This document shows, piece after piece, positions 1,756 through 26,200 of a DNA stretch of 64,000 bases. The stretch's first letter is position 1, and each line of letters opens with the position of its first letter. The notes below the pieces were generated by a model. The model ran no database searches and had not been told where the DNA came from. It worked only from the letters and a program-made list of their open reading frames with translations. The DNA is taken from the IMG/VR virus record IMGVR_UViG_3300032303_001313, positions 81,172 through 145,171 of that record. One strand, 5' to 3'. A program made the position numbers and the translations under genes. This DNA comes from a virus. Taxonomy: Duplodnaviria; Heunggongvirae; Uroviricota; Caudoviricetes.

Positions 1756-3446
1756 TACAACCCTCTAGCCTTTAGCATTTCAATTCGTTTATTTTCCCAA
1801 AAATTTCTTCTAGATGCTAAATATACCATTTGATCATATGCTATATTGAAATCGAATGGATTTCTTGTATTCTTTGCGTCAAACATGGCCGAATTCTCAT
1901 TATAGTACATACCGCCCGTTACAGATGTTGTATTTCTATATGTTAAGTCTCTAATCATGCGTGATTCAAAATATGTATTAATTCTTTCTGGTTCGCCCAA
2001 AACTTCTGATATTAACCATCTAGATAAGTCTTGATAAGTAGTCCCGTCTGGAATAGATTCCGGCTTTGGTTTTGGTTTAATGACTCTAGGAGGATGTTTC
2101 CAATTATCAAAAGTTTCAGAAATTTCCACACTATCAAAGTATTTTTCCCAAGCCTGCCCGCTCTTATCCCATTGATAATGTTCTAGGAACGCTTGCCTTG
2201 TTAAGAAGCCCGCCCTTCTTCTTATACTAACGGGCTTCTCAAAAAACTCTTTGAACGCTTTGGCAGCAAAAACATTGTCTGGAACTGCCCTAAAACATCC
2301 TGTTTCTAATTCTTTGTAAAGAGCCTTGGGTGTTAGTGGAGTTCCTCCTAAATTTCTAACAACGCTTTCCATAGCAGAATAATCTGTAGCCATAATTGGA
2401 ATTCCACAAGCAGCCGCCTCAACTTGAGGTAAACCAAATCCTTCACAGTTAGCATACTGAACATATAAATCAAATAGATTGATTATCTTAGACAAATCTT
2501 CGTATCCAACACCATTCTTTACATTAGATAGTGTTGCACCAAATTGTCCAGTATATGGAGATTGTGCAATCGCCCCCTTAAATAAAGAAGCAAAAGGTCT
2601 TTCTGTTTGACCACAAATATATGTAAAGTAAACTTTAGAAGATAGATTGTATTGCTGTAATAATTCTGGAATGTCCCAACCCAAGTCTGGATAACTAGTA
2701 TGACAGTATAAATAATAATCAGAGTTATTCTCTACACTATCTAGAAGTAATCTAAATGCTTCAAATAGGTCTGGATATAGTTTACGTCTTTGATTACGCA
2801 TAACTGTTCCGATAATCTTAGCATTCGGGTCTATTCCAAAAGAGGCCCGCAATCCATCTTTATCTTCAATTGGTTGATATGCTGAATGAGCAGAGGGTGG
2901 CGAAATACCAATATAGTTGATTTTGTTACCAGACTGCTGCTTTAAAACTTCTCCAGCCCACTCGGAATATGTCAGGCAGGCGTCGGCCGATTGATACGTC
3001 GCAATCCATTGTCTTGCTTGGGGTCTGGCGTCCACCGTAGGCATTATACACCACTTGAAGTATGGGCGAAATGGCGACCTTTCTGCAAAGTCTAACATCC
3101 AGAAATCTCGTATATCACACACTATATCTGGCATAAAGTCCAAACATACTGTCTCAAATATGAGTTCTCCAAACTGAGATATTGGATTCTGATTATATTG
3201 TTCTTTCTCTTCTTGAGAACAAGTATTGTCTGGTACTACTCCGTAGAATTTCCAAGGTATTCCAGCGGCCCGTGGATCGTTTCTTTCTCCATATGAAGCC
3301 ATTTCTGCTATTTCATATTTACCAGTACTATACAAATAGTTTAGTATTTCTCTAGTATAGGTTGCATAGCCAGTATTTAGAAACGTGGCTTCGCTACAAA
3401 ACAATATTCTTGGTTTTCTCATGAGTCCTTGTAATCCTTGTGACAA
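1755..3446 (-). CDS. glycosyltransferase family 1 domain protein
   Basis: C-terminal EGFGLPQVEAAACGIPIMATDYSAM motif typical of GT1/GT4 enzymes; 563 aa. Confidence 0.6.
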   Translation of the reverse strand: MSQGLQGLMRKPRILFCSEATFLNTGYATYTREILNYLYSTGKYEIAEMASYGERNDPRAAGIPWKFYGVVPDNTCSQEEKEQYNQNPISQFGELIFETVCLDFMPDIVCDIRDFWMLDFAERSPFRPYFKWCIMPTVDARPQARQWIATYQSADACLTYSEWAGEVLKQQSGNKINYIGISPPSAHSAYQPIEDKDGLRASFGIDPNAKIIGTVMRNQRRKLYPDLFEAFRLLLDSVENNSDYYLYCHTSYPDLGWDIPELLQQYNLSSKVYFTYICGQTERPFASLFKGAIAQSPYTGQFGATLSNVKNGVGYEDLSKIINLFDLYVQYANCEGFGLPQVEAAACGIPIMATDYSAMESVVRNLGGTPLTPKALYKELETGCFRAVPDNVFAAKAFKEFFEKPVSIRRRAGFLTRQAFLEHYQWDKSGQAWEKYFDSVEISETFDNWKHPPRVIKPKPKPESIPDGTTYQDLSRWLISEVLGEPERINTYFESRMIRDLTYRNTTSVTGGMYYNENSAMFDAKNTRNPFDFNIAYDQMVYLASRRNFWENKRIEMLKARGL

Positions 3447-3745
3447 AAATCAAACTCGTTAATTCTAAAAATGATATCGTCGCTATCTGGATTTGAGTTT
3501 TTAGCAGAAGCGTTAATTACTAACTTTGTACCTTTAGTAGCATATTTCTCTAAAGTTTCTGCACCAGTATGCCACGCCTCGCAATGGATATAGGTAGGAA
3601 TTCTACTCTTTTCTCCACTTTTAGTTCTACGGTAACTATATGTTACCATAACAAATTCGGCTAGAACAACATCGTCAACTATTGAAACTCTTGGATTCTC
3701 TGTTAAGTATCCAGTAATAGAGCATGAATTCATCTTATCTCCCAT
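3419..3745 (-). CDS. SSB-like OB-fold protein (second SSB paralogue)
   Basis: The ITGYLTENPRV...AEFVMVTY...YIHCEAWHTGAETLEKYATKGTKLVI pattern resembles the bacterial SSB OB-fold. Confidence 0.4.
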   Translation of the reverse strand: MGDKMNSCSITGYLTENPRVSIVDDVVLAEFVMVTYSYRRTKSGEKSRIPTYIHCEAWHTGAETLEKYATKGTKLVINASAKNSNPDSDDIIFRINEFDFCHKDYKDS

Positions 3746-3782: not shown

Positions 3783-5384
3783 TTAAACCTCATGGATATT
3801 GTCAACTATAAATGAGGAATCATTTCCATCCACTTTGCCACAAAACATTAAATTATTGCCCTCATATAAGATGTATTTGAATTGTTCTCTAACTTTTGGG
3901 AAAATGAGAACGCTATCTAACATACAGGTTTCATCCTCTATAGTTAAAAAGCACATTATTTTACCCTTAGATTCCCCCTTCGCTATAGTGTGTTCTGTTA
4001 CTCTTTGAATATTAGCAACAATGCATATGTTTTGCCCCTTCCTACCATTCACAATTTCTTTACAGGTTGTATTAGATGCAGAAGTATCTGTAGTCTCTAC
4101 TTTTGTCATACTAACTGGACAACCTAAGAATTTAACTTCTTGATCTATAACCCAACTAGGATCATCTTCTAAACTATAGGGCGGATTGATAAGTAGACTA
4201 ATTTCATTTATGACTACTTGTTTACGATCTGCTTTAAAAGTTCCTCCACCCTCTTTTTTGGTTGGGGCCAAATCCTTGAGACAGTCTACAAAGTTACCCC
4301 ATTTTTTAGTTGGATAATTGTTGACCACCCAAGTTTGTTCTGCCTTTGTTAAAGCCCTGTATATTTCGTACTCGTATAGAGCCTTGTTTCTACTCACAGC
4401 ACCCTTAAATCCCCTAAAGAATCCTATTGATGCTAGAGTTTTAAACGCAGTTGAACTAATACGCGATCCAAGGTAAATCAGAATCTCTACCCAAGTAAAC
4501 TTATCAATAGATTTCCCAACTTCTTTTTCGCATTCTGCTACTGCTTCTATTAACTTATCGCCGCTAGTGCCGGTTAGTGACTTTATATCTTTGATCCCAA
4601 AGTAAATCTTACCATTACGAATATTGAACTTTGTTTTGAAGTTGGTTATATTTGGAGTTTTAGTCTCAATATCAAATAGTTTGGCCTCAGATATTAATTC
4701 GTGAACTTCTTGGTGTGGGTCTGGCTTTTCATTCGCATAGTATAGGTAAGACAAAAAGAACTCTTGTGGATAATGGGCCTTGTAATATGCGCTCCAGTAT
4801 GAACACACGGCATATGAAACACTGTGAGACTTATTAAAGGCGTATCTTGATGATTTTTCAATCCATCCGAAAATCTCTTCTGCTTCTTCTTTTGTTACAA
4901 TACCAACACGTTCAGCACCAGCGATGAAAGACTTTTTAACCTCATTCATAAGGTCTGCTCTTTTCTTACCAATCGCTTTTCTAAGAACGTCTGCTTCTTG
5001 TAGATTGAATCCTGCCACCTTTTCAGCAATACGCATAGATTGCTCTTGATAAACAAGAACACCATAAGTTGGCTTGAGAATATCTTCTAGAATAGGATGT
5101 AAATATGTAACATCTTCACGCCCATGCTTTCTATCTACATAATGCTGTGTCATGCTTTTTCCATCAACAAAAGCCTTCAATGTTCCGGGTCTGATGATGG
5201 CAATAAGTGCAGATAATTCTTCTATGTTGTTTGGTGCTACTTTTTTAGACCAATTTTTACCTAGATTACTCTCTAATTGGAAGACTCCCTTAGTTCTTCC
5301 ATCAGCAAATAATTGCCAAGTTTTAGCATCATCATACTTAATATCACTTAACATACAAATTCCCGTCAGCAAACGCTTTGTCAA
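3783..5384 (-). CDS. dnaE: DNA polymerase III alpha subunit, C-terminal portion (fingers, beta-binding, OB)
   Basis: VFQLES, RPG, HGRE..YLHP..LE.TYG..VYQEQ, GKK and NKSHS..YA motifs are collinear with E. coli DnaE residues about 780-1100. Confidence 0.8.
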   Translation of the reverse strand: MTKRLLTGICMLSDIKYDDAKTWQLFADGRTKGVFQLESNLGKNWSKKVAPNNIEELSALIAIIRPGTLKAFVDGKSMTQHYVDRKHGREDVTYLHPILEDILKPTYGVLVYQEQSMRIAEKVAGFNLQEADVLRKAIGKKRADLMNEVKKSFIAGAERVGIVTKEEAEEIFGWIEKSSRYAFNKSHSVSYAVCSYWSAYYKAHYPQEFFLSYLYYANEKPDPHQEVHELISEAKLFDIETKTPNITNFKTKFNIRNGKIYFGIKDIKSLTGTSGDKLIEAVAECEKEVGKSIDKFTWVEILIYLGSRISSTAFKTLASIGFFRGFKGAVSRNKALYEYEIYRALTKAEQTWVVNNYPTKKWGNFVDCLKDLAPTKKEGGGTFKADRKQVVINEISLLINPPYSLEDDPSWVIDQEVKFLGCPVSMTKVETTDTSASNTTCKEIVNGRKGQNICIVANIQRVTEHTIAKGESKGKIMCFLTIEDETCMLDSVLIFPKVREQFKYILYEGNNLMFCGKVDGNDSSFIVDNIHEV

Positions 5385-6024
5385 AATTCATGTTTTGGTA
5401 TACTGCTCTATGAGTCTTCATTAGTTTAATAAATATGTTGGCTTCATCTTTTACGTCCTGTAAGGCATCGTGAGCATTTTCTAGTGAAAGTCCCATTCGT
5501 TCACGCAAAGAATCCATGCTAATAGACTTAACACCGGGATCGCTCTCTGTCCAAGCAAATATATTATCCATAATATCGAACTTGTATATCTTACTAAATA
5601 GTTTCTGATGATCACGTTCATTATCCCAAGGCCCGTACTCTTTACATAAACGATTGATGATAATTAAGTCGAAACCAATAATGTTAAATCCAACAGGAAT
5701 TGGGTTAAAAAATGGCTCGCCCTTCCAATTATAAGCAAGAACAAATTTGGCAAACTTTGACCATACAGATTCTAAAGAAGGGGCTTTTATAAGTTGCTCT
5801 CTAGTCTTTTGAGTTACTTTTAAAGCACCGTCTTCTACTGGATCAAATCCAGCAGCAATAGCCTTTTCGTCATCAAGTATTGGTTTAATTTCACTATTGA
5901 ATTGACCTTTAACTTTTAAGGTTCTACCATCAATTGCCAAAGCGGCCAATTGTGTTGGTTGAGTTTTATGAGGATTTCTACTTCCGCTCTCAAAATCGAA
6001 CACAATAAAATCTCTGTTAGCCAT
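5344..6024 (-). CDS. DnaQ-like DEDDh 3'-5' proofreading exonuclease
   Basis: Exo I FDFES, Exo II IGFD and Exo III H..DALQD motifs. The start ATG overlaps the stop of upstream dnaE-N (AATGGCTAA). Confidence 0.75.
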   Translation of the reverse strand: MANRDFIVFDFESGSRNPHKTQPTQLAALAIDGRTLKVKGQFNSEIKPILDDEKAIAAGFDPVEDGALKVTQKTREQLIKAPSLESVWSKFAKFVLAYNWKGEPFFNPIPVGFNIIGFDLIIINRLCKEYGPWDNERDHQKLFSKIYKFDIMDNIFAWTESDPGVKSISMDSLRERMGLSLENAHDALQDVKDEANIFIKLMKTHRAVYQNMNFDKAFADGNLYVK

Positions 6025-7684
6025 TTGTTGCTCCTGTTAATTCTTCTATGTACATCAATTTATCAAGTAAATTAATCGCTAAAATATCTAACTTTGGACG
6101 CCCTAATGCTTCTAATGCTGACATTTCTAGTCCTACAATCTTTTCATCTGTTCCATCTTGGCATACCATTGGGCATACCTCTTCTAAAGGTTCAGCAGAA
6201 ATAACAACTCCCGCCGGATGCTTTCCCTTAGATTTGTATGTTCCTTCAATCTTTATTGCTTGATCAAAGAACTCTGCATAATCGCCCTCAAGTTTGCCAT
6301 CTTCTGATATTCTACAAAAGTCCTTAAGTTCTTCTGAGTTGTTGATTAATGCCCACTTTATGATAGAACGATCTTCTTTATACATTTCTTCTAACTGGTC
6401 AGAGATTCTAGCCTCGTCTGGAATACAGTTACTAATAGCGTTCATTTCTGCAAAAGAACAGGCTTCATTAACACGCAATACTTCTTTGATAGCACTCTTA
6501 CCCTGTAAACTACCTAATGTGATCATTTGGCTTACATGGTTATGACCATACTTTTCTTTTAGGTAAGCAATAACCTCGTCACGCTTATTACCGGGAACAT
6601 CTATATCAATATCTGGTAGAGAAACATAATCGGCAGTATTTCTACCAGCATTATAGAATCTGGCAAATAGTAAGTCGAATTCAATAGGGTCGATTTTGGT
6701 GATACCAATTAGATAAGAAATCAAACAACCAGCAGCCGATCCTCTTCCCGGCCCAGTTAACCAGTCGCGACTATTAACGTAATGTATGATATCTTGCACA
6801 ACCAAAAAATACCCGAATAGAGTAGCATTCTTGATTACTTCAAACTCTTCTTTAAATCTATCTAAATATCTTGTTTTTACTGTTTCATCTTTGACCTTAC
6901 TTTGATCCACAAGTAATTTCTTCCAACCTTTTCTGCATAGTTCTTTTAAGTATTCTTCTTCTGATAAGTTGTTTGGGCATGGGAATTTTGGAAGAATTGG
7001 CTTGCTAAGAATGTTGTAATCTTCGCACTGATTACGAATTTGGTCTAATACTTTAGTATCTTTAGACTTAGACTCTTCTTTATCAAGAACGTAAAAAGTG
7101 TCATGAATAAAGAAGTCAACTTTGTCTACTAGTTTGTTTTCGGAAATAGACTTCCTAATTTGGGGAAGTGTTGTTTTCATTTCAGAGCAAAGTAGTATTC
7201 TATGTAGTTTAGCGTCTTGCTGATCTACATAATAACTAGGATCGCAATTTGTAAAGTCTTTTCCGCTTAAAACGTAGAAGTTATTGTTCTTCGATATTGT
7301 TGCTAAGTCTTGCTGCAATTGTCCATTTTTATCTAATGATGATACTAACTTGATTAAGTCAAACCATCCATTTTTGTTCTTTACAAATACTGCAAAATCA
7401 TCAAAAGAGCAACCAATTATGGGCTTAATTCCGCCCTCTTTGCAGGCTTGAAAGAATTCAACTGTTCCAGCAATAGTCTTATAGTCGCATATTCCGCAAG
7501 TATCGTAGCCATTTTCTTTGCACTTCTTTACTAAATGCTCTGGTTTAGAGTAAGCATTGCGTAAACTGTAGTGAGTATAATTCCTAAGAGGAAACCAAGA
7601 CATATTCTTCCTTTGTAAAAACTTTAACGTAACACAACTTGTTATACCGCCTTGGGGCCATAAGTTAATATGACCCCCATTCAA
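6017..7684 (-). CDS. dnaE: DNA polymerase III alpha subunit, N-terminal portion (PHP domain and palm)
   Basis: PHP motif HYSLRNA..; palm GPGRGSAAGCLISYLIGIT..DP..FDLLFARF..PDIDIDV; HPAGVVIS; ends at the KLDILAINLL (FDFLGLRTL-equivalent) fingers segment. Confidence 0.8.
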   Translation of the reverse strand: MNGGHINLWPQGGITSCVTLKFLQRKNMSWFPLRNYTHYSLRNAYSKPEHLVKKCKENGYDTCGICDYKTIAGTVEFFQACKEGGIKPIIGCSFDDFAVFVKNKNGWFDLIKLVSSLDKNGQLQQDLATISKNNNFYVLSGKDFTNCDPSYYVDQQDAKLHRILLCSEMKTTLPQIRKSISENKLVDKVDFFIHDTFYVLDKEESKSKDTKVLDQIRNQCEDYNILSKPILPKFPCPNNLSEEEYLKELCRKGWKKLLVDQSKVKDETVKTRYLDRFKEEFEVIKNATLFGYFLVVQDIIHYVNSRDWLTGPGRGSAAGCLISYLIGITKIDPIEFDLLFARFYNAGRNTADYVSLPDIDIDVPGNKRDEVIAYLKEKYGHNHVSQMITLGSLQGKSAIKEVLRVNEACSFAEMNAISNCIPDEARISDQLEEMYKEDRSIIKWALINNSEELKDFCRISEDGKLEGDYAEFFDQAIKIEGTYKSKGKHPAGVVISAEPLEEVCPMVCQDGTDEKIVGLEMSALEALGRPKLDILAINLLDKLMYIEELTGATNG

Positions 7685-7717: not shown

Positions 7718-8701
7718 TTACCAACTCTTACAAGCCCAGTATCTTGCTTTGTATTTAGGGCCGGGATTGTCACATCTCATTCTTGCTCTAAAACTTTTAC
7801 GTCTAGCAGGAATGTCTTTTTTAATTTCCATATTTGGATCGCCAAAGTTTACTTTAACGACATTTCCTTTATCGTTCTTAACATATACGCTAAACTTCTT
7901 TGGGCCGTCTGGAGTTCTAAAAGGTTTATTTAATGTAACTTTTCTACCTTGGTATTCACTACCTTCTCCCATGTACATTAAAACCCTTCCATCTTTTTCG
8001 TAATAACCTTTGCGTCTATAAGTATAGACTTCACCAGTATGAGTATCTTGATATTGGTATTTACCTTCTGTTTCTAATAAGTCATCATCTTCATACTTGT
8101 CTGGACTGTAATATTTGACAAAATCATATATATTTTGTACATATATTTCTGCTTTAGAAATCATATCCTTAGTCCAATCTTCAAATTCTATCGGAGTATC
8201 AACCATTCCATCAATCTTTGATGCTATTTCAACAAGTTGATCACGCATTTTTTGAATTTGCTCAATAGCCATTGTGCTATCGCCAGACTGAGCCTTTTTC
8301 CAAGCCTCCGGGTCTGGACGATCCTTATCGCCTCTTTTTGCTGGTTTATAATTCTTACCCTCTCGTTCTTTTTTCTTTCTTATATTTTCCCAAAGTCCCG
8401 GCTTTTCTCCAGCAATATCCCACTCTTCTGTTTCTTCGCCAAAATCTTCATACTCTGCTTCGGCAGGAATGTGGAAATTATTTTCATCAATTTCTTCTTC
8501 ATATCCAACCTCCATTTGCATATAAAAGTCTGCGGATTCTACATAACCACAACCTTCTGTGGCTTGGCTCATGCAAATTGCAACTCTTTGAGAATTATCT
8601 GGATATTCTTTTTTCATAACATCGCTACTCATGCATCGTTCTACGAATTTATTTTTATCTTCATCTTTGTTTCTTTTAGGAAGTGGCATAGTTATCTCCA
8701 A
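7718..8701 (-). CDS. hypothetical acidic protein with basic Cys-containing C-terminus
   Basis: Long ORF, strongly acidic, C-terminus ...RARMRCDNPGPKYKARYWACKSW; no recognisable fold. Confidence 0.35.
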   Translation of the reverse strand: MEITMPLPKRNKDEDKNKFVERCMSSDVMKKEYPDNSQRVAICMSQATEGCGYVESADFYMQMEVGYEEEIDENNFHIPAEAEYEDFGEETEEWDIAGEKPGLWENIRKKKEREGKNYKPAKRGDKDRPDPEAWKKAQSGDSTMAIEQIQKMRDQLVEIASKIDGMVDTPIEFEDWTKDMISKAEIYVQNIYDFVKYYSPDKYEDDDLLETEGKYQYQDTHTGEVYTYRRKGYYEKDGRVLMYMGEGSEYQGRKVTLNKPFRTPDGPKKFSVYVKNDKGNVVKVNFGDPNMEIKKDIPARRKSFRARMRCDNPGPKYKARYWACKSW

Positions 8702-9533: not shown

Positions 9534-10553
9534 TTAACCCGGAGCAGAATAGAAGCCGATATTGAAACCTTCTCTAGTACATTCTTTTATAGTATGTTCC
9601 ATCCCATTAGTTTGTAAAACATCTTCAACATACTGGCATATATTCTTTTCACTTCCCGGCCACTTGTTTTTGCAATAATGACATAGTTTTGTGCATTTCC
9701 AGTTATCTCTGTTTTTAGATATTGGTTGGGGCTTTTCATTCTCTTTTATCTCTAAGAATCTTTTCTTCAACATATTCTTGAACTTTTCTTGATCAGACTC
9801 GTCAAAACACATTGAAAAAGGCCCGCCGTCTTTAATGAAGAAGATGCTCATTATTGACTGTTTGTAATCTGGAAATAGTTTGGAAATTGCATAGTTATAT
9901 AGCAATAGTTGTGGATCAGAACAAAGTTTCTCATATGTTTTCTCTTCACCAGTAGCCCAATCAAGACGCCTTCCCGTTTTCCAATCTATTACTTCAATTA
10001 CTCCGTCATCGACCTCTGTTACTAAGTCTATAGTCCCCTTAATAGCAAGTTGCCCCTTAACCTTCTCACCATTAATTTCATATTCATAGAAAGCCCAATC
10101 TTCATCAATTGGAATATCAAAGTGTGGTTCTGCTTCTACTATTTTGCGGTATCTAGGATCAAACTGACCCTCATTATACTTCAAAGTATTCCATACTAAT
10201 TCTGCACATTGATCTTTGTCAGTCTTGCTAAATGAATTCTTTGAATCTCTGGTATAGTTACAAAAACTGGAAGTTATTAGATTATCAACAACACTATCTT
10301 GTAACAATTCACTTCTCTTTATGGTAATGCCGCCCAACGCATCATCAATGACGGTAATCTTCGTCTTAGATGGATAATCTTGATTGAACTTTTTTAGTTT
10401 TGCTAGAACTTCCAAAACCTTATGAACTATAGTTCCTAATTCAGCCTTCTTACCACTATCTGATTGATGCCCCAATACATATGTAATAAAATACTGCATT
10501 TGACAGTAAGAATAGTTATTGTAACTGGACGATCTGAGATACGTTATAAGCAT
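9534..10553 (-). CDS. PD-(D/E)XK nuclease (Cas4/RecB-like exonuclease)
   Basis: IDLVTE...IEVIDWKTG core (D..E.K) plus a C-terminal Cys cluster CTKLCHYCKNKWPG consistent with the Fe-S Cas4-like family. Confidence 0.5.
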   Translation of the reverse strand: MLITYLRSSSYNNYSYCQMQYFITYVLGHQSDSGKKAELGTIVHKVLEVLAKLKKFNQDYPSKTKITVIDDALGGITIKRSELLQDSVVDNLITSSFCNYTRDSKNSFSKTDKDQCAELVWNTLKYNEGQFDPRYRKIVEAEPHFDIPIDEDWAFYEYEINGEKVKGQLAIKGTIDLVTEVDDGVIEVIDWKTGRRLDWATGEEKTYEKLCSDPQLLLYNYAISKLFPDYKQSIMSIFFIKDGGPFSMCFDESDQEKFKNMLKKRFLEIKENEKPQPISKNRDNWKCTKLCHYCKNKWPGSEKNICQYVEDVLQTNGMEHTIKECTREGFNIGFYSAPG

Positions 10554-23715: not shown

Positions 23716-24903
23716 TTAATAAATATTGAATTGAGACAAATTTAAAATATCAAGTTGATATCCAAGTACAGACATTGCATTATTGATTTCTGACATATAA
23801 TATGGTATAAAATTTGGATTACCTTGTACAGATAATAATACCATTTGATTATTAACTATTATAAATTGTGGATTTCCGCTATCTCCAGTAATCAAAGGTT
23901 CATTAAAAATCAACTGATTTGTATCTGTGGGGAAACTTGTTCTAAATTGACTATCGTTTAAGTCAGTAATAGAATTCCAAAGATAAATAAGACTTTTTTG
24001 TTCTTGATCATGATGAATGTATGGTAAAGTATTTCTACTCAATCCATACATGGATGGCAAATATCTGTACCAATCTATCGGCAAAAACTTACAAAAAGAA
24101 ATGCCTGACGGTTGGCCGTTTTCTATAGTGGCGTCAGAATTTAATACAACAATTACCATGTCTGGAGTTGGAGATTGATTTATTGTTAATACTTGCGTAA
24201 CTGTTCTAGTTATAACTTGATTGCTTTCATTAACAAATCTAACTGTATCTCCTATAATTGGATAAAAGTTGGCGTGTTTGCAATATATCATATGTCTAGG
24301 AGAAATTAATGTTCCTCCGCTTGCTCCACCGTGCCTAGAATTCCACGGACTGATAGAAGTAGTATTGACATTAGATATTAAACTATTTATATTTCTAATG
24401 TATGTTGAAGTATCGTGATTTTTTGAAGAAAATAAATTGATTTGTTTTTGTGGAATAGCAGTAACTCTAGAATTCATATCATCAATAATATGTTTTATTA
24501 GACTATTATTAGCATATCCTAAAAATATTGTTTTAAATAATTCAGAGGTTTGATTTAATATATTTATAGATACGCTGATATTATTCATTGTTGCTGTTAT
24601 GTTACATGATCCATTATTTACATGCGTAACATATCCATTTGCTACAGATGCAATATTTGTATTATCAGAAAACCACGTTATTGTGTTAATTCCTTGATTG
24701 TTGATTATTATAGGAGTTAAACTGTAATCAAGACAAGAATTTATATTGTCATATCGTGCATATACTTGATCTTTGGAATTAAAAGTTGAAGATGGTTGTG
24801 AAGAATTTATAATTCTTACAATTGGAGTTTTTGAAATTCCAACCAACTTTTCTGGAATTTTAAAACTTATGTTTCTGTTATTGATTTTAGAAATTATGTT
24901 CAT
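23716..24903 (-). CDS. tail fibre / receptor-binding-like protein
   Basis: Asn/Ser/Thr-rich 395-aa protein immediately downstream of a tail-fibre gene. Confidence 0.4.
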   Translation of the reverse strand: MNIISKINNRNISFKIPEKLVGISKTPIVRIINSSQPSSTFNSKDQVYARYDNINSCLDYSLTPIIINNQGINTITWFSDNTNIASVANGYVTHVNNGSCNITATMNNISVSINILNQTSELFKTIFLGYANNSLIKHIIDDMNSRVTAIPQKQINLFSSKNHDTSTYIRNINSLISNVNTTSISPWNSRHGGASGGTLISPRHMIYCKHANFYPIIGDTVRFVNESNQVITRTVTQVLTINQSPTPDMVIVVLNSDATIENGQPSGISFCKFLPIDWYRYLPSMYGLSRNTLPYIHHDQEQKSLIYLWNSITDLNDSQFRTSFPTDTNQLIFNEPLITGDSGNPQFIIVNNQMVLLSVQGNPNFIPYYMSEINNAMSVLGYQLDILNLSQFNIY

Positions 24904-24907
24904 ATTT

Positions 24908-26200
24908 TTATGGGTTTAAGTTTACTGTTACACCCCTAGATACAAGCGTAGACCTTGCTCCACTACCTATTGGTGATAATGTGGATAATCCTGCGCTTGT
25001 TCCAGCATTTAATGAAACAATTCTACCGGATGGATATAAAAAAGTACCGCTAGTGCCATTTAGATTAGCCAATCTTATTAAAGTATTTTCCACAGATGAT
25101 GAATTTAATCTATGTCCGCTTATAGTTACATCACCATTTACAAGTTTTAATCCTGACCCAAGATTAAAATTAACTAAGGTAGAAGATGACACTCCGCTAG
25201 GTATACTTATTGGACAGCCTATATATTCAATAGATGGTAAAAATATTCCAGATAATGCTGGTAAATTTACATAAGTACCACCAAAAGTAGTAGTAATATA
25301 TTTTAATTTTGGAAAATTTATTTGAGTTAATATTGCCATATTTGAAGGATTAAGTGTTGAAAGACTTTCAAGATTTGGTAAATCTATATTAGACATATTT
25401 GATTGTACGCTAGTAGCAAAAGTTAAATTTCCATTTTCCCAATATTCTAAATTTGGTGCATAAAAATTATTGAAATTAATAACATTAGGAACTATATTTC
25501 CAAAAATTGCTCTTACTTCTGGCATAGAAATAATATTCAATGGAAAACCCGATGATGATCCACCCGCAGTATTTATATTACCATTTAATATCTTCAAATT
25601 TGGAAAATATATTCCCGAACAAGTTGACGATGTAAAAGTTCCTACTGTCATACCATTAAGTCCAACATGATTGAACGTTACCGATGTTGCTCCGCTGGGT
25701 ATATTTGCCCAAGCAATATCATTCGTCCATAAGCCGGGATAATCAAAAGTTTTAGTATTTACTCCAGAACCTTCAATTCGTATAATATGCCGAGTTTGAC
25801 TTGGTACTACAGTAAGAGTTTGAGTGGAAAAAGTACTGAAACCACTAGCAAAAGTATATGATATAACATTCGGATTTTTTTCAATATATGATGTTCCGTC
25901 TGCTATTATTTTTCCACCAGTAGATATTCCATTTCCGACACGCAAATAATTTTTATCTAATGGAATGGCTATTTCACCACTATTCAATACTATTTGAGAT
26001 AAAGCAATATCAGTATCATTTAAGACGCTTAATCTCGCTTCTACAACATCTGGTAATTGAGTGCTGGTTAATTTGAAATTATTAAATGAAATCTTTTTAG
26101 TAATGGCATCGCCACTAGGATTGTCCATAAAAATAAACAAATCATCAGATGTTAAATTACCGCTACCGTCTGGTAATTGATTTATTCTAACAGTTCCCAT
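24908..26200 (-). CDS. tail fibre protein
   Basis: N-terminal LPDGSGNLTSDDLFIFMD...ITKKISFNNF anchor-like motif, then Gly/Ser/Thr/Asn-rich beta repeats. Confidence 0.5.
   Translation of the reverse strand: MGTVRINQLPDGSGNLTSDDLFIFMDNPSGDAITKKISFNNFKLTSTQLPDVVEARLSVLNDTDIALSQIVLNSGEIAIPLDKNYLRVGNGISTGGKIIADGTSYIEKNPNVISYTFASGFSTFSTQTLTVVPSQTRHIIRIEGSGVNTKTFDYPGLWTNDIAWANIPSGATSVTFNHVGLNGMTVGTFTSSTCSGIYFPNLKILNGNINTAGGSSSGFPLNIISMPEVRAIFGNIVPNVINFNNFYAPNLEYWENGNLTFATSVQSNMSNIDLPNLESLSTLNPSNMAILTQINFPKLKYITTTFGGTYVNLPALSGIFLPSIEYIGCPISIPSGVSSSTLVNFNLGSGLKLVNGDVTISGHRLNSSSVENTLIRLANLNGTSGTFLYPSGRIVSLNAGTSAGLSTLSPIGSGARSTLVSRGVTVNLNP

Follow-up and report, generated by a model that had tools for sequence, protein, structure and literature searches.

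A divided dnaE gene with a DnaQ-like exonuclease gene at the break: a candidate three-piece replicase module in a Caudoviricetes virus

The window analyzed here is a stretch of 64,000 nucleotides (nt) from a Caudoviricetes virus (IMG/VR record IMGVR_UViG_3300032303_001313, positions 81,172-145,171). Within positions 3783-7684, it harbors a module of three genes on the minus strand, in which the gene for the alpha subunit of DNA polymerase III (Pol III), dnaE, is divided into an N-terminal half (dnaE-N) and a C-terminal half (dnaE-C) with an exonuclease gene between them (Table 1), an order hereafter called N-exo-C. The open reading frames (ORFs) were compared with profiles from Pfam, PHROG (phrog_) and NCBIfam and aligned with the alpha subunits of Taq and E. 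coli. A preliminary description, made from the letters of the DNA, had already proposed such a split, which is borne out by the three ORFs found and by the agreement of the Pfam and DnaE-model mapping. Instead of a single polypeptide of approximately 1100-1200 amino acids (aa), as is typical for DnaE, the window contains ORFs of 528 and 523 aa with a 226-aa gene between them.

Table 1. Position of the module genes, their motifs and junctions and two neighboring anchor genes in the window
Feature	Position	Strand	Remarks
dnaE-N, 528 aa	7603..6017	minus	PHP, palm, thumb, first fingers helix; ends ...EELTGATNG, stop
Shine-Dalgarno AGGAAG of dnaE-N	7612-7607	minus	3 nt upstream of ATG 7603
Degenerate PHP motif I	7565..7588	minus	LRNYTHYS in place of H-x-H...D; Taq alpha alignment
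DEDDh 3'-5' exonuclease, DnaQ-like, 226 aa	6024..5344	minus	Pfam RNase_T
Shine-Dalgarno AGGAG of exonuclease	6031..6035	minus	within the last dnaE-N codons, encodes LTG
Overlap of 8 nt, ATGGCTAA	6024-6017	minus	exonuclease start / dnaE-N stop
Exo I, FDFES	6000-5986	minus	D10, E12
Exo II, GFDL	5676-5665	minus	D119
Exo III, HDALQD	5472-5455	minus	H185, D190 (H-x4-D)
Purine-rich GACGGGA	5361..5367	minus	within the last exonuclease codons; second LTG if read in the C-half frame
Overlap of 11 nt, ATGTTAAGTGA	5354-5344	minus	dnaE-C start / exonuclease stop
dnaE-C, 523 aa	5354..3783	minus	rest of fingers, putative helix-hairpin-helix/beta-binding region and C-terminal domain
SSB gene	3419..3745	minus	Pfam SSB, 2e-9; downstream neighbor in split and unsplit relatives
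PD-(D/E)XK exonuclease gene	9534..10553	minus	phrog_69, 4e-22; upstream anchor shared with unsplit relatives (PDDEXK_1)

The product of dnaE-N starts with a PHP domain (Pfam PHP, 2e-15), as DnaE-type polymerases do, and continues with a complete palm/thumb region (DNA_pol3_alpha, 5e-68, profile positions 1-260 of 260). The catalytic aspartates of E. coli alpha are D401, D403 and D555. All three catalytic aspartates are present on dnaE-N, in the motifs PDIDIDV (6616-6596) and KLDILAI (6094-6074), which align with PDIDTD and KMDFLG of Taq, as expected for a palm of the DnaE type. The start of the gene, previously placed at TTG 7684, was moved to ATG 7603 (MSWFPL...), since the N-halves of relatives begin at the same point (MNWFPL or MDWFPL) and a Shine-Dalgarno (SD) sequence precedes this codon. 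At the positions equivalent to H11, H13, D20 and the histidine of the TDH motif in Taq, the PHP domain of the window has R, Y, N and Y (7565-7588 and 7478-7492), and these residues make exonuclease activity of the domain improbable. The ligands were lost in all loci of the clade to which the window belongs (group A), while most of the distant N-exo-C loci kept them (HHDH). Hence, the presence of the exonuclease gene is not tied to decay of the PHP domain.

The exonuclease matched Pfam RNase_T over the full length of the profile (positions 1-164 of 164, 3e-10, 41.3 bits at a cut-off of 24) and phrog_192, annotated as DNA polymerase exonuclease subunit (3e-21). Its five active-site residues (D10, E12, D119, H185 and D190) are those of a DEDDh enzyme and were invariant in 63 unique relatives as well as across the wider family. 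The C-terminal tail (residues ~200-226, about 27 residues) is conserved too, and the size of the protein is 224-226 aa in all 120 best homologues. Among solved structures, a profile of the family best matched the PolC-type exonuclease of T. maritima (4e-8) and ExoI. Phages with this type of module are abundant in metagenomes from fresh water and the sea, with more than 1000 exonuclease clusters at 90% identity.

For dnaE-C, a strong match to Pfam DNA_pol3_finger was obtained (6e-48, profile positions 22-164 of 166), and the protein aligned with residues 587-855 of E. coli alpha and with positions 584-1051 of the 1146 positions of NCBIfam PRK05673. The score for Pfam HHH_6 (20.3 bits) remained under the cut-off of 25.6, and a clamp-binding motif was not recognized. 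The fingers motifs GVFQLES, IIRPG, YQEQ, LRKAIGKK (4985-4962) and FNKSH (4838-4824) were identified, and thus the set that marks DnaE-type fingers (YQEQ, RRAxGKK, FNKSH) is present. In relatives possessing a further gene between exonuclease and C-half, the latter starts right at M-x-[DE]-YNDxxTW. From this position it can be deduced that the most likely start of dnaE-C in the window is ATG 5354 (MLSDIKYDD...).

On every full-length DnaE model the two halves occupy adjacent positions. The N-half reaches position 613 of phrog_405, 564 of PRK05673, 571 of NCBIfam TIGR00594 and approximately 568 of E. coli alpha, and the C-half starts at 622, 584, 583 and 587, respectively. The break, corresponding to about residues 569-586 of E. 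coli alpha, is therefore located in a variable loop after the first fingers helix, which agrees with the initial placement inside the fingers. About ten residues at the end of the N-half and two at the start of the C-half are outside the DnaE alignment. Due to the position of the catalytic aspartates on the N-half and of YQEQ, LRKAIGKK and FNKSH on the C-half, the active site is divided between two products.

The complete exonuclease gene sits exactly at this break and its start and stop codons overlap the neighboring genes on both sides, as had been noticed before. The upstream overlap amounts to 8 nt; the downstream overlap, initially given as 41 nt on the basis of a start at TTG 5384, is 11 nt with the start at ATG 5354 (Table 1). 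At the junction of N-half and exonuclease, overlaps of 8 or 11 nt recur in many relatives. In nearly all of them an SD-like motif is found 6-10 nt ahead of the exonuclease ATG, regardless of the gene upstream. The purine-rich GACGGGA ahead of dnaE-C is a possible weak SD sequence of this gene. The tripeptide LTG, which was seen on both sides of the exonuclease gene and compared to a target-site duplication, has another explanation. Its codons on the N-side (tta ACA GGA Gca) constitute the SD sequence of the exonuclease, and RLLTGI on the C-side precedes the true beginning of the C-half; it results from reading the last exonuclease codons (...AFADGNLYVK, stop) in another frame.

To what extent the module is conserved became evident from scans of large sequence collections. 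When IMG/VR was scanned with the exonuclease, 80 distinct loci (73-84% identity) were obtained, all of which revealed the order N-exo-C. Further scans, started from DnaE proteins of more distant relatives, yielded some 20 additional loci of the same order (L084, L085 and L095-L114, 40-60% identity) and a distant group (L120-L266; contigs of up to 237 kb), in which 147 of 147 loci, comprising 97 distinct sequences, contain three separate ORFs in this order. In the distant group, identities amount to approximately 40% for the N-half, 37% for the exonuclease and 43% for the C-half. An exhaustive HMMER search with the C-half covered 1.84 billion cluster representatives (50%-identity clusters). Of the best 150, which were inspected and showed 37-59% identity, 135 are stand-alone C-halves with a methionine start near the same point, seven have no methionine start and three are intact DnaE proteins; fusions with an exonuclease did not occur among them. 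Independent gene calls (ENA, JGI, Logan) gave the domain succession PHP plus DNA_pol3_alpha, RNase_T, in some cases Endonuclease_7, and DNA_pol3_finger. The one exception among the related loci examined is a lineage in which the exonuclease gene is situated upstream of an unsplit dnaE, so that an intact gene does exist in relatives. Recurrence of the gene order is far beyond chance. The ratios of nonsynonymous to synonymous substitution rates (dN/dS, Nei-Gojobori, among close relatives) were 0.058 for the N-half, 0.031 for the exonuclease and 0.042 for the C-half, and all three genes are under strong purifying selection.

Many relatives possess additional whole genes between N-half and exonuclease or between exonuclease and C-half, which encode HNH or Endonuclease_7 proteins, an FkbM methyltransferase or products without assignment. 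Since complete genes can separate the three ORFs, their products cannot depend on fusion or recoding into one chain. Clearly, the junctions are favored landing sites for selfish endonuclease genes. The FkbM methyltransferase genes (Pfam Methyltransf_21) were detected between N-half and exonuclease (L010:5327-6001, L063:5399-5998) and, in the unsplit layout, near the module (L274:918-1535), an unusual cargo at such a position. In the distant group, the spacer of about 180 nt between N-half and exonuclease holds another conserved ORF of 56-72 aa (89 unique sequences) with the motif ...EY.KI...(V/I)SCC(K/R)..NA.... Distant C-halves have a peculiarity as well. Most of them (107 of the 135 stand-alone representatives, P0125, P0133, P0123 and L084:5992-7647) possess an N-terminal extension of about 30 aa with a CxC motif (e.g. 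YEFECGCRF...) and at least one further cysteine or histidine ahead of the conserved ...TW motif. The extension might bind metal as a small element and so aid docking onto the N-half; dnaE-C of the window does not contain it.

Split and unsplit layouts share the same genomic backbone. In the window, it is composed of genes for DnaB, primase, deoxynucleoside monophosphate (dNMP) kinase, the PD-(D/E)XK nuclease, two further proteins (one of them glycosyltransferase-like), the N-half, exonuclease and C-half, SSB and glycosyltransferases. The unsplit loci contain the PD-(D/E)XK nuclease gene, one or more small ORFs, the exonuclease gene, an unsplit dnaE of 1052-1139 aa, SSB (missing in L274, one of the four loci) and glycosyltransferase genes. 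Their exonuclease is an orthologue with 54-57% identity. As backbone and exonuclease correspond, the layouts differ solely in which comes first, the exonuclease gene or the segment coding for the N-half. Comparison of the sequences thus points to a local swap at one permissive loop and not to acquisition of a foreign gene. Of the gene-insertion event suggested at the outset, the difference in layout from an unsplit dnaE therefore stands, while the arrival of a foreign gene has to be given up.

Neighbor-joining trees, calculated on projected alignments for DnaE (832 columns) and the exonuclease, were congruent. The whole family was separated with 100% bootstrap support from distant unsplit phage DnaE proteins that have no neighboring exonuclease. 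Within it, the distant split group was basal (99%) and the window clade monophyletic (100%), and the unsplit forms grouped together with the split locus L096 (100%, DnaE). L096 was placed as sister to the unsplit L274 with bootstrap values of 92 (DnaE) and 82 (exonuclease). Such trees would require two or more layout switches under either ancestral state, a split ancestor being slightly more parsimonious. The swap is old and lineage-wide and seems to have happened more than once. Divergence of the exonuclease follows that of DnaE (identity falls from 84% to 37%), a pattern that favors long co-inheritance over recent mobility. Judged by these comparisons, the layout is old and has been passed on stably within a large phage family. 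It is conceivable that the swaps proceeded by tandem duplication of an exo-N block and subsequent loss of the outer copies, or by endonuclease-stimulated repair. Duplication intermediates, i.e. two exonuclease copies or a stand-alone N-half besides an intact dnaE, were not encountered among about 250 loci. The protein P0195 (755 aa) was considered as an intermediate and discarded as uninformative, as it adjoins an uncalled stretch of 930 nt in its scaffold.

Directly upstream of the exonuclease gene, several loci contain a small ORF, termed ORF X (58-83 aa; ...SLCDL...YQVHSDN.K.KFS...AVNKF.E.K). It was found in the unsplit loci L093/L094, L272, L273 and L276 and in some split ones (L095-L097, L278); examples are L093:5064-5315, L096:2977-3207, L272:2057-2290, L273:2067-2312 and L278:7922-8137. 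ORF X is absent from the window and did not match any Pfam or PHROG family. By its size and position it resembles theta (HolE), but homology to this subunit had no support in Pfam or PHROG and it was not retained as a theta analogue.

The dnaE gene of this phage family is also an intein hot spot. In L029:2581-5345 and L030:3350-5315, a split intein between GPGRG and SAAG causes an additional break in the N-half, with an N-part ...GPGRG-CFLPDT... and a C-part MKLTKK...VHN-SAAG. In L029, a free-standing endonuclease-like gene of 291 aa (DUF7487/TnsA-like N) is located between the intein parts. L093:6001-10687 contains a split intein together with a 295-aa endonuclease gene between FNK and SHS, and in L277 dnaE is fractured by a split intein at another site. 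Classical HNH inteins follow IIRPG in the C-halves of L052:7125-9485 and L116:5011-7377. Fifty-five of the 135 stand-alone C-half representatives exceed 620 aa and are probably intein-bearing. For metagenomic fractured genes, among them DnaE, Dassa et al. (2009, PMC2677866) reported split inteins with a free-standing endonuclease; the inteins of L029/L030, L093, L052 and L116 match these fractured genes.

Taken together, we consider it likely that the window carries a three-piece replicase module of an uncultured tailed phage from aquatic habitats, in which alpha is made as two polypeptides, the proofreader is encoded between them and the core would be held together non-covalently. The case for this split replicase is built entirely from comparative evidence. 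The three genes are probably co-transcribed, as their spacing and overlaps suggest, and would be translated in series from the N-half over the exonuclease to the C-half by means of the overlapping stop and start codons. There are precedents for assembly of such proteins. The split gp43 of the T4 family (43A/43B; Aeromonas phages 25 and 44RR) co-purifies and is active, and the NrdA protein of phage Aeh1, split by mobE, is functional (PMC2988022). By analogy with these two cases, we infer that the N-half, exonuclease and C-half assemble without covalent joining into a three-piece Pol III core. Its active site would be composite, with catalytic aspartates from the N-half and, for binding of the incoming nucleotide, fingers residues from the C-half. 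Because the PHP metal ligands were lost in the window clade, the DEDDh exonuclease is the only plausible candidate for the proofreader. It may be anchored to the polymerase by its C-terminal tail, as E. coli epsilon is by its C-terminal segment.

Some results weigh against this interpretation. The exonuclease is far from the NCBIfam epsilon models, with 16.7 bits for dnaQ_proteo (cut-off 222.7) and 20.4 bits for PRK06310 (cut-off 236), and for this reason it is called DnaQ-like and not epsilon proper. A structure prediction of the exonuclease by AlphaFold2 with a shallow alignment of close homologues gave no usable fold (predicted local distance difference test score, pLDDT, 37.6). A scan for promoters and terminators did not reveal any enrichment, and neither a clamp nor a clamp loader was found among the 20 larger ORFs of the window that were checked.

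This last result could mean that the halves no longer cooperate, e.g. because the host replicase is used and one or both halves have adopted another role, as no clamp or clamp loader is encoded in the annotated parts of the window. We regard loss of cooperation as unlikely, since all polymerase motifs were kept, the gene order is fixed throughout a deep family, in which purifying selection is strong, and the module is embedded in a full replication cluster (DnaB, primase, dNMP kinase, SSB, UvsX-like recombinase). Another scenario is a recent mobile-element event, by which a homing-endonuclease cassette brought the exonuclease as cargo into dnaE. In many relatives, HNH and Endonuclease_7 genes are neighbors of the exonuclease gene on either side, and the layout was switched more than once, as L096 is nested among unsplit forms. 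On the other hand, at neither junction of the window is there a free-standing homing endonuclease gene such as many relatives have, the trees are congruent and the LTG repeat is explained by the SD sequence, which makes a recent event of this kind quite improbable.

It is even harder to reconcile the data with an exonuclease that forms an inserted domain, similar to PolC, of an N-exo-C, N-exo or exo-C polypeptide produced by frameshifting or read-through. The stop/start overlaps at both junctions and the internal DEDDh domain of PolC would fit, but the frames differ at both junctions, no slippery heptamer was seen on reading the two overlaps, and each gene has its own SD-like motif. Moreover, complete genes lie between the ORFs in many relatives, and neither the 150 C-half representatives nor the 120 best exonuclease homologues include a fused protein. 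Post-translational joining of the halves, through a split intein or some other form of trans-splicing, has equally little in its favor. The dnaE genes of relatives do contain split inteins (L029/L030, L093, L277) and HNH inteins (L052, L116), yet these true inteins are obvious, whereas the break in the window offers no room for one. Neither a +1 Cys/Ser/Thr nucleophile context nor an intein motif was found there, and a Pfam scan of the three ORFs detected no intein or Hint domain. Finally, overlapping ORFs in a single window could stem from indels, and dnaE might in reality be continuous or, as a decaying pseudogene, dead. This explanation can practically be dismissed, as the same break with varied junction structures exists in more than 200 independent contigs (ENA, JGI, Logan), an intact gene of 681 nt separates the halves, all catalytic motifs are intact and dN/dS is 0.03-0.06 for all three genes. 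The three-piece module thus remains the preferred interpretation. A more far-reaching version of it, to which we attach a rather low probability, is that N-exo-C is the standard replicase of an uncultured aquatic phage family with genomes of about 150-240 kb, in which the gene order would program coupled, stepwise synthesis and assembly and segments were swapped repeatedly. Repeated swaps at one loop, if true, would imply a recurrent rearrangement mechanism or very strong selection for that site.

Outside the module, all sizeable ORFs of the window (1-64000) are on the minus strand as well, and the content is that of an early/metabolic phage region. The ORFs encode a UvsX-like recombinase, class I/II ribonucleotide reductase, PhoH, RIIA, RlaP, an SPFH protein, the nicotinamide adenine dinucleotide (NAD) salvage proteins NAMPT and a phosphoribosyl pyrophosphate (PRPP)-synthetase-like protein, a trypsin-like protease and several glycosyltransferases. 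Between 22000 and 26000, the GC content is as low as 0.31-0.32, and the GC skew, which is steadily negative elsewhere, is lost. Two ORFs in this segment (23716-24903 and 24908-26200) gave only weak matches to Big_2 and Mtd_N, and the segment may be a variable receptor-binding region or have been acquired recently. Upstream of dnaE-N, an ORF of 327 aa (7718-8701) has an acidic middle part of low complexity, its match to a phage family (phrog_7595) being confined to the last ~80 residues. Its place is taken in relatives by a 343-aa ORF and a separate DUF6356 gene of 79 aa.

The assessment that this layout is not known from characterized C-family polymerases holds, as no description of it was found in the literature covered, which included few papers from subscription journals. 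Surveys of C-family polymerases and viral replicases (PMC3919608, PMC4889955, PMC12926913) do not describe it, nor do PMC7824862 and PMC2677866. Isolated phages, represented by the INPHARED collection, gave only two matches of approximately 100 nt at the DNA level and identities of at most about 36% to either half in protein searches; the layout was absent. Related exonucleases occur among these isolates only in Bacteroides DAC phages, Chryseobacterium MA9V-3 and Rctr197k, none of which has flanking DnaE halves. In a scan of GTDB genomes, the module was present on only five contigs of metagenome-assembled genomes, and due to the inconsistent taxonomy of these contigs, no host was deduced from them.

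If the interpretation is correct, the module would be the first case, in the literature and databases covered, of a C-family replicase that is split without an intein. The break parts the catalytic carboxylates from the nucleotide-binding fingers and thus points to a site at which Pol III alpha naturally tolerates a split, which might be useful for engineering and for studies on the communication between palm and fingers. A proofreader gene inside the polymerase gene may be a compact means of keeping the subunits in step. Moreover, as one genomic backbone occurs with either layout, the two offer a clean and testable case of gene-order evolution. Unless the pattern is recognized, annotation pipelines would keep reporting truncated dnaE genes in this family.

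With the E. coli Pol III core (alpha, epsilon and theta), the module has in common a PHP domain devoid of exonuclease ligands and a separate DEDDh proofreader with a C-terminal tail. Unlike the E. coli core, alpha consists of two polypeptides, the proofreader gene is located inside the polymerase gene instead of being unlinked, and the exonuclease is distant from epsilon. A theta homologue was not detected; ORF X of the relatives lacks a family match. PolC of Firmicutes is likewise a C-family polymerase linked with a DEDDh exonuclease. However, the exonuclease of PolC is a domain inserted in PHP on the same polypeptide, while in the window it is encoded by a separate gene between palm/thumb and fingers, and the module is thus not of the PolC type. 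In group 2.2 jumbo phages, too, a phage C-family catalytic module is composed of two proteins, a minimal Pol III alpha being split between genes that lie far apart (PMC7824862). By contrast with the module described here, those proteins are devoid of PHP and other domains, there is no exonuclease between them and the main replicase belongs to family B (PMC7824862).

A dnaE in two pieces is also known from the cyanobacterial dnaE-n/dnaE-c genes and from the fractured genes of metagenomes, which include three fractured DnaE sites (PMC2677866). Since no intein is present at the break in the window, ligation is not expected, unlike in split-intein DnaE. A comparison with the cyanobacterial site (NCBIfam PRK09532/PRK07373) and with the three positions of split inteins in relatives showed that the break in the window lies elsewhere in dnaE. 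In its organization, the module resembles the T4-related genes in pieces, in which an essential replication enzyme is encoded by two adjacent genes without an intein and homing endonucleases are associated, here in the relatives. Those cases concern a family B polymerase or a ribonucleotide reductase and have an endonuclease gene or an untranslated spacer between the pieces, whereas the module of the window belongs to family C and its intervening gene codes for a putative partner subunit, which a deep family has conserved. Hence, polymerases encoded by genes in pieces are known as such; what is new is an intein-free split replicase gene of family C with the gene of a putative partner subunit at the break.

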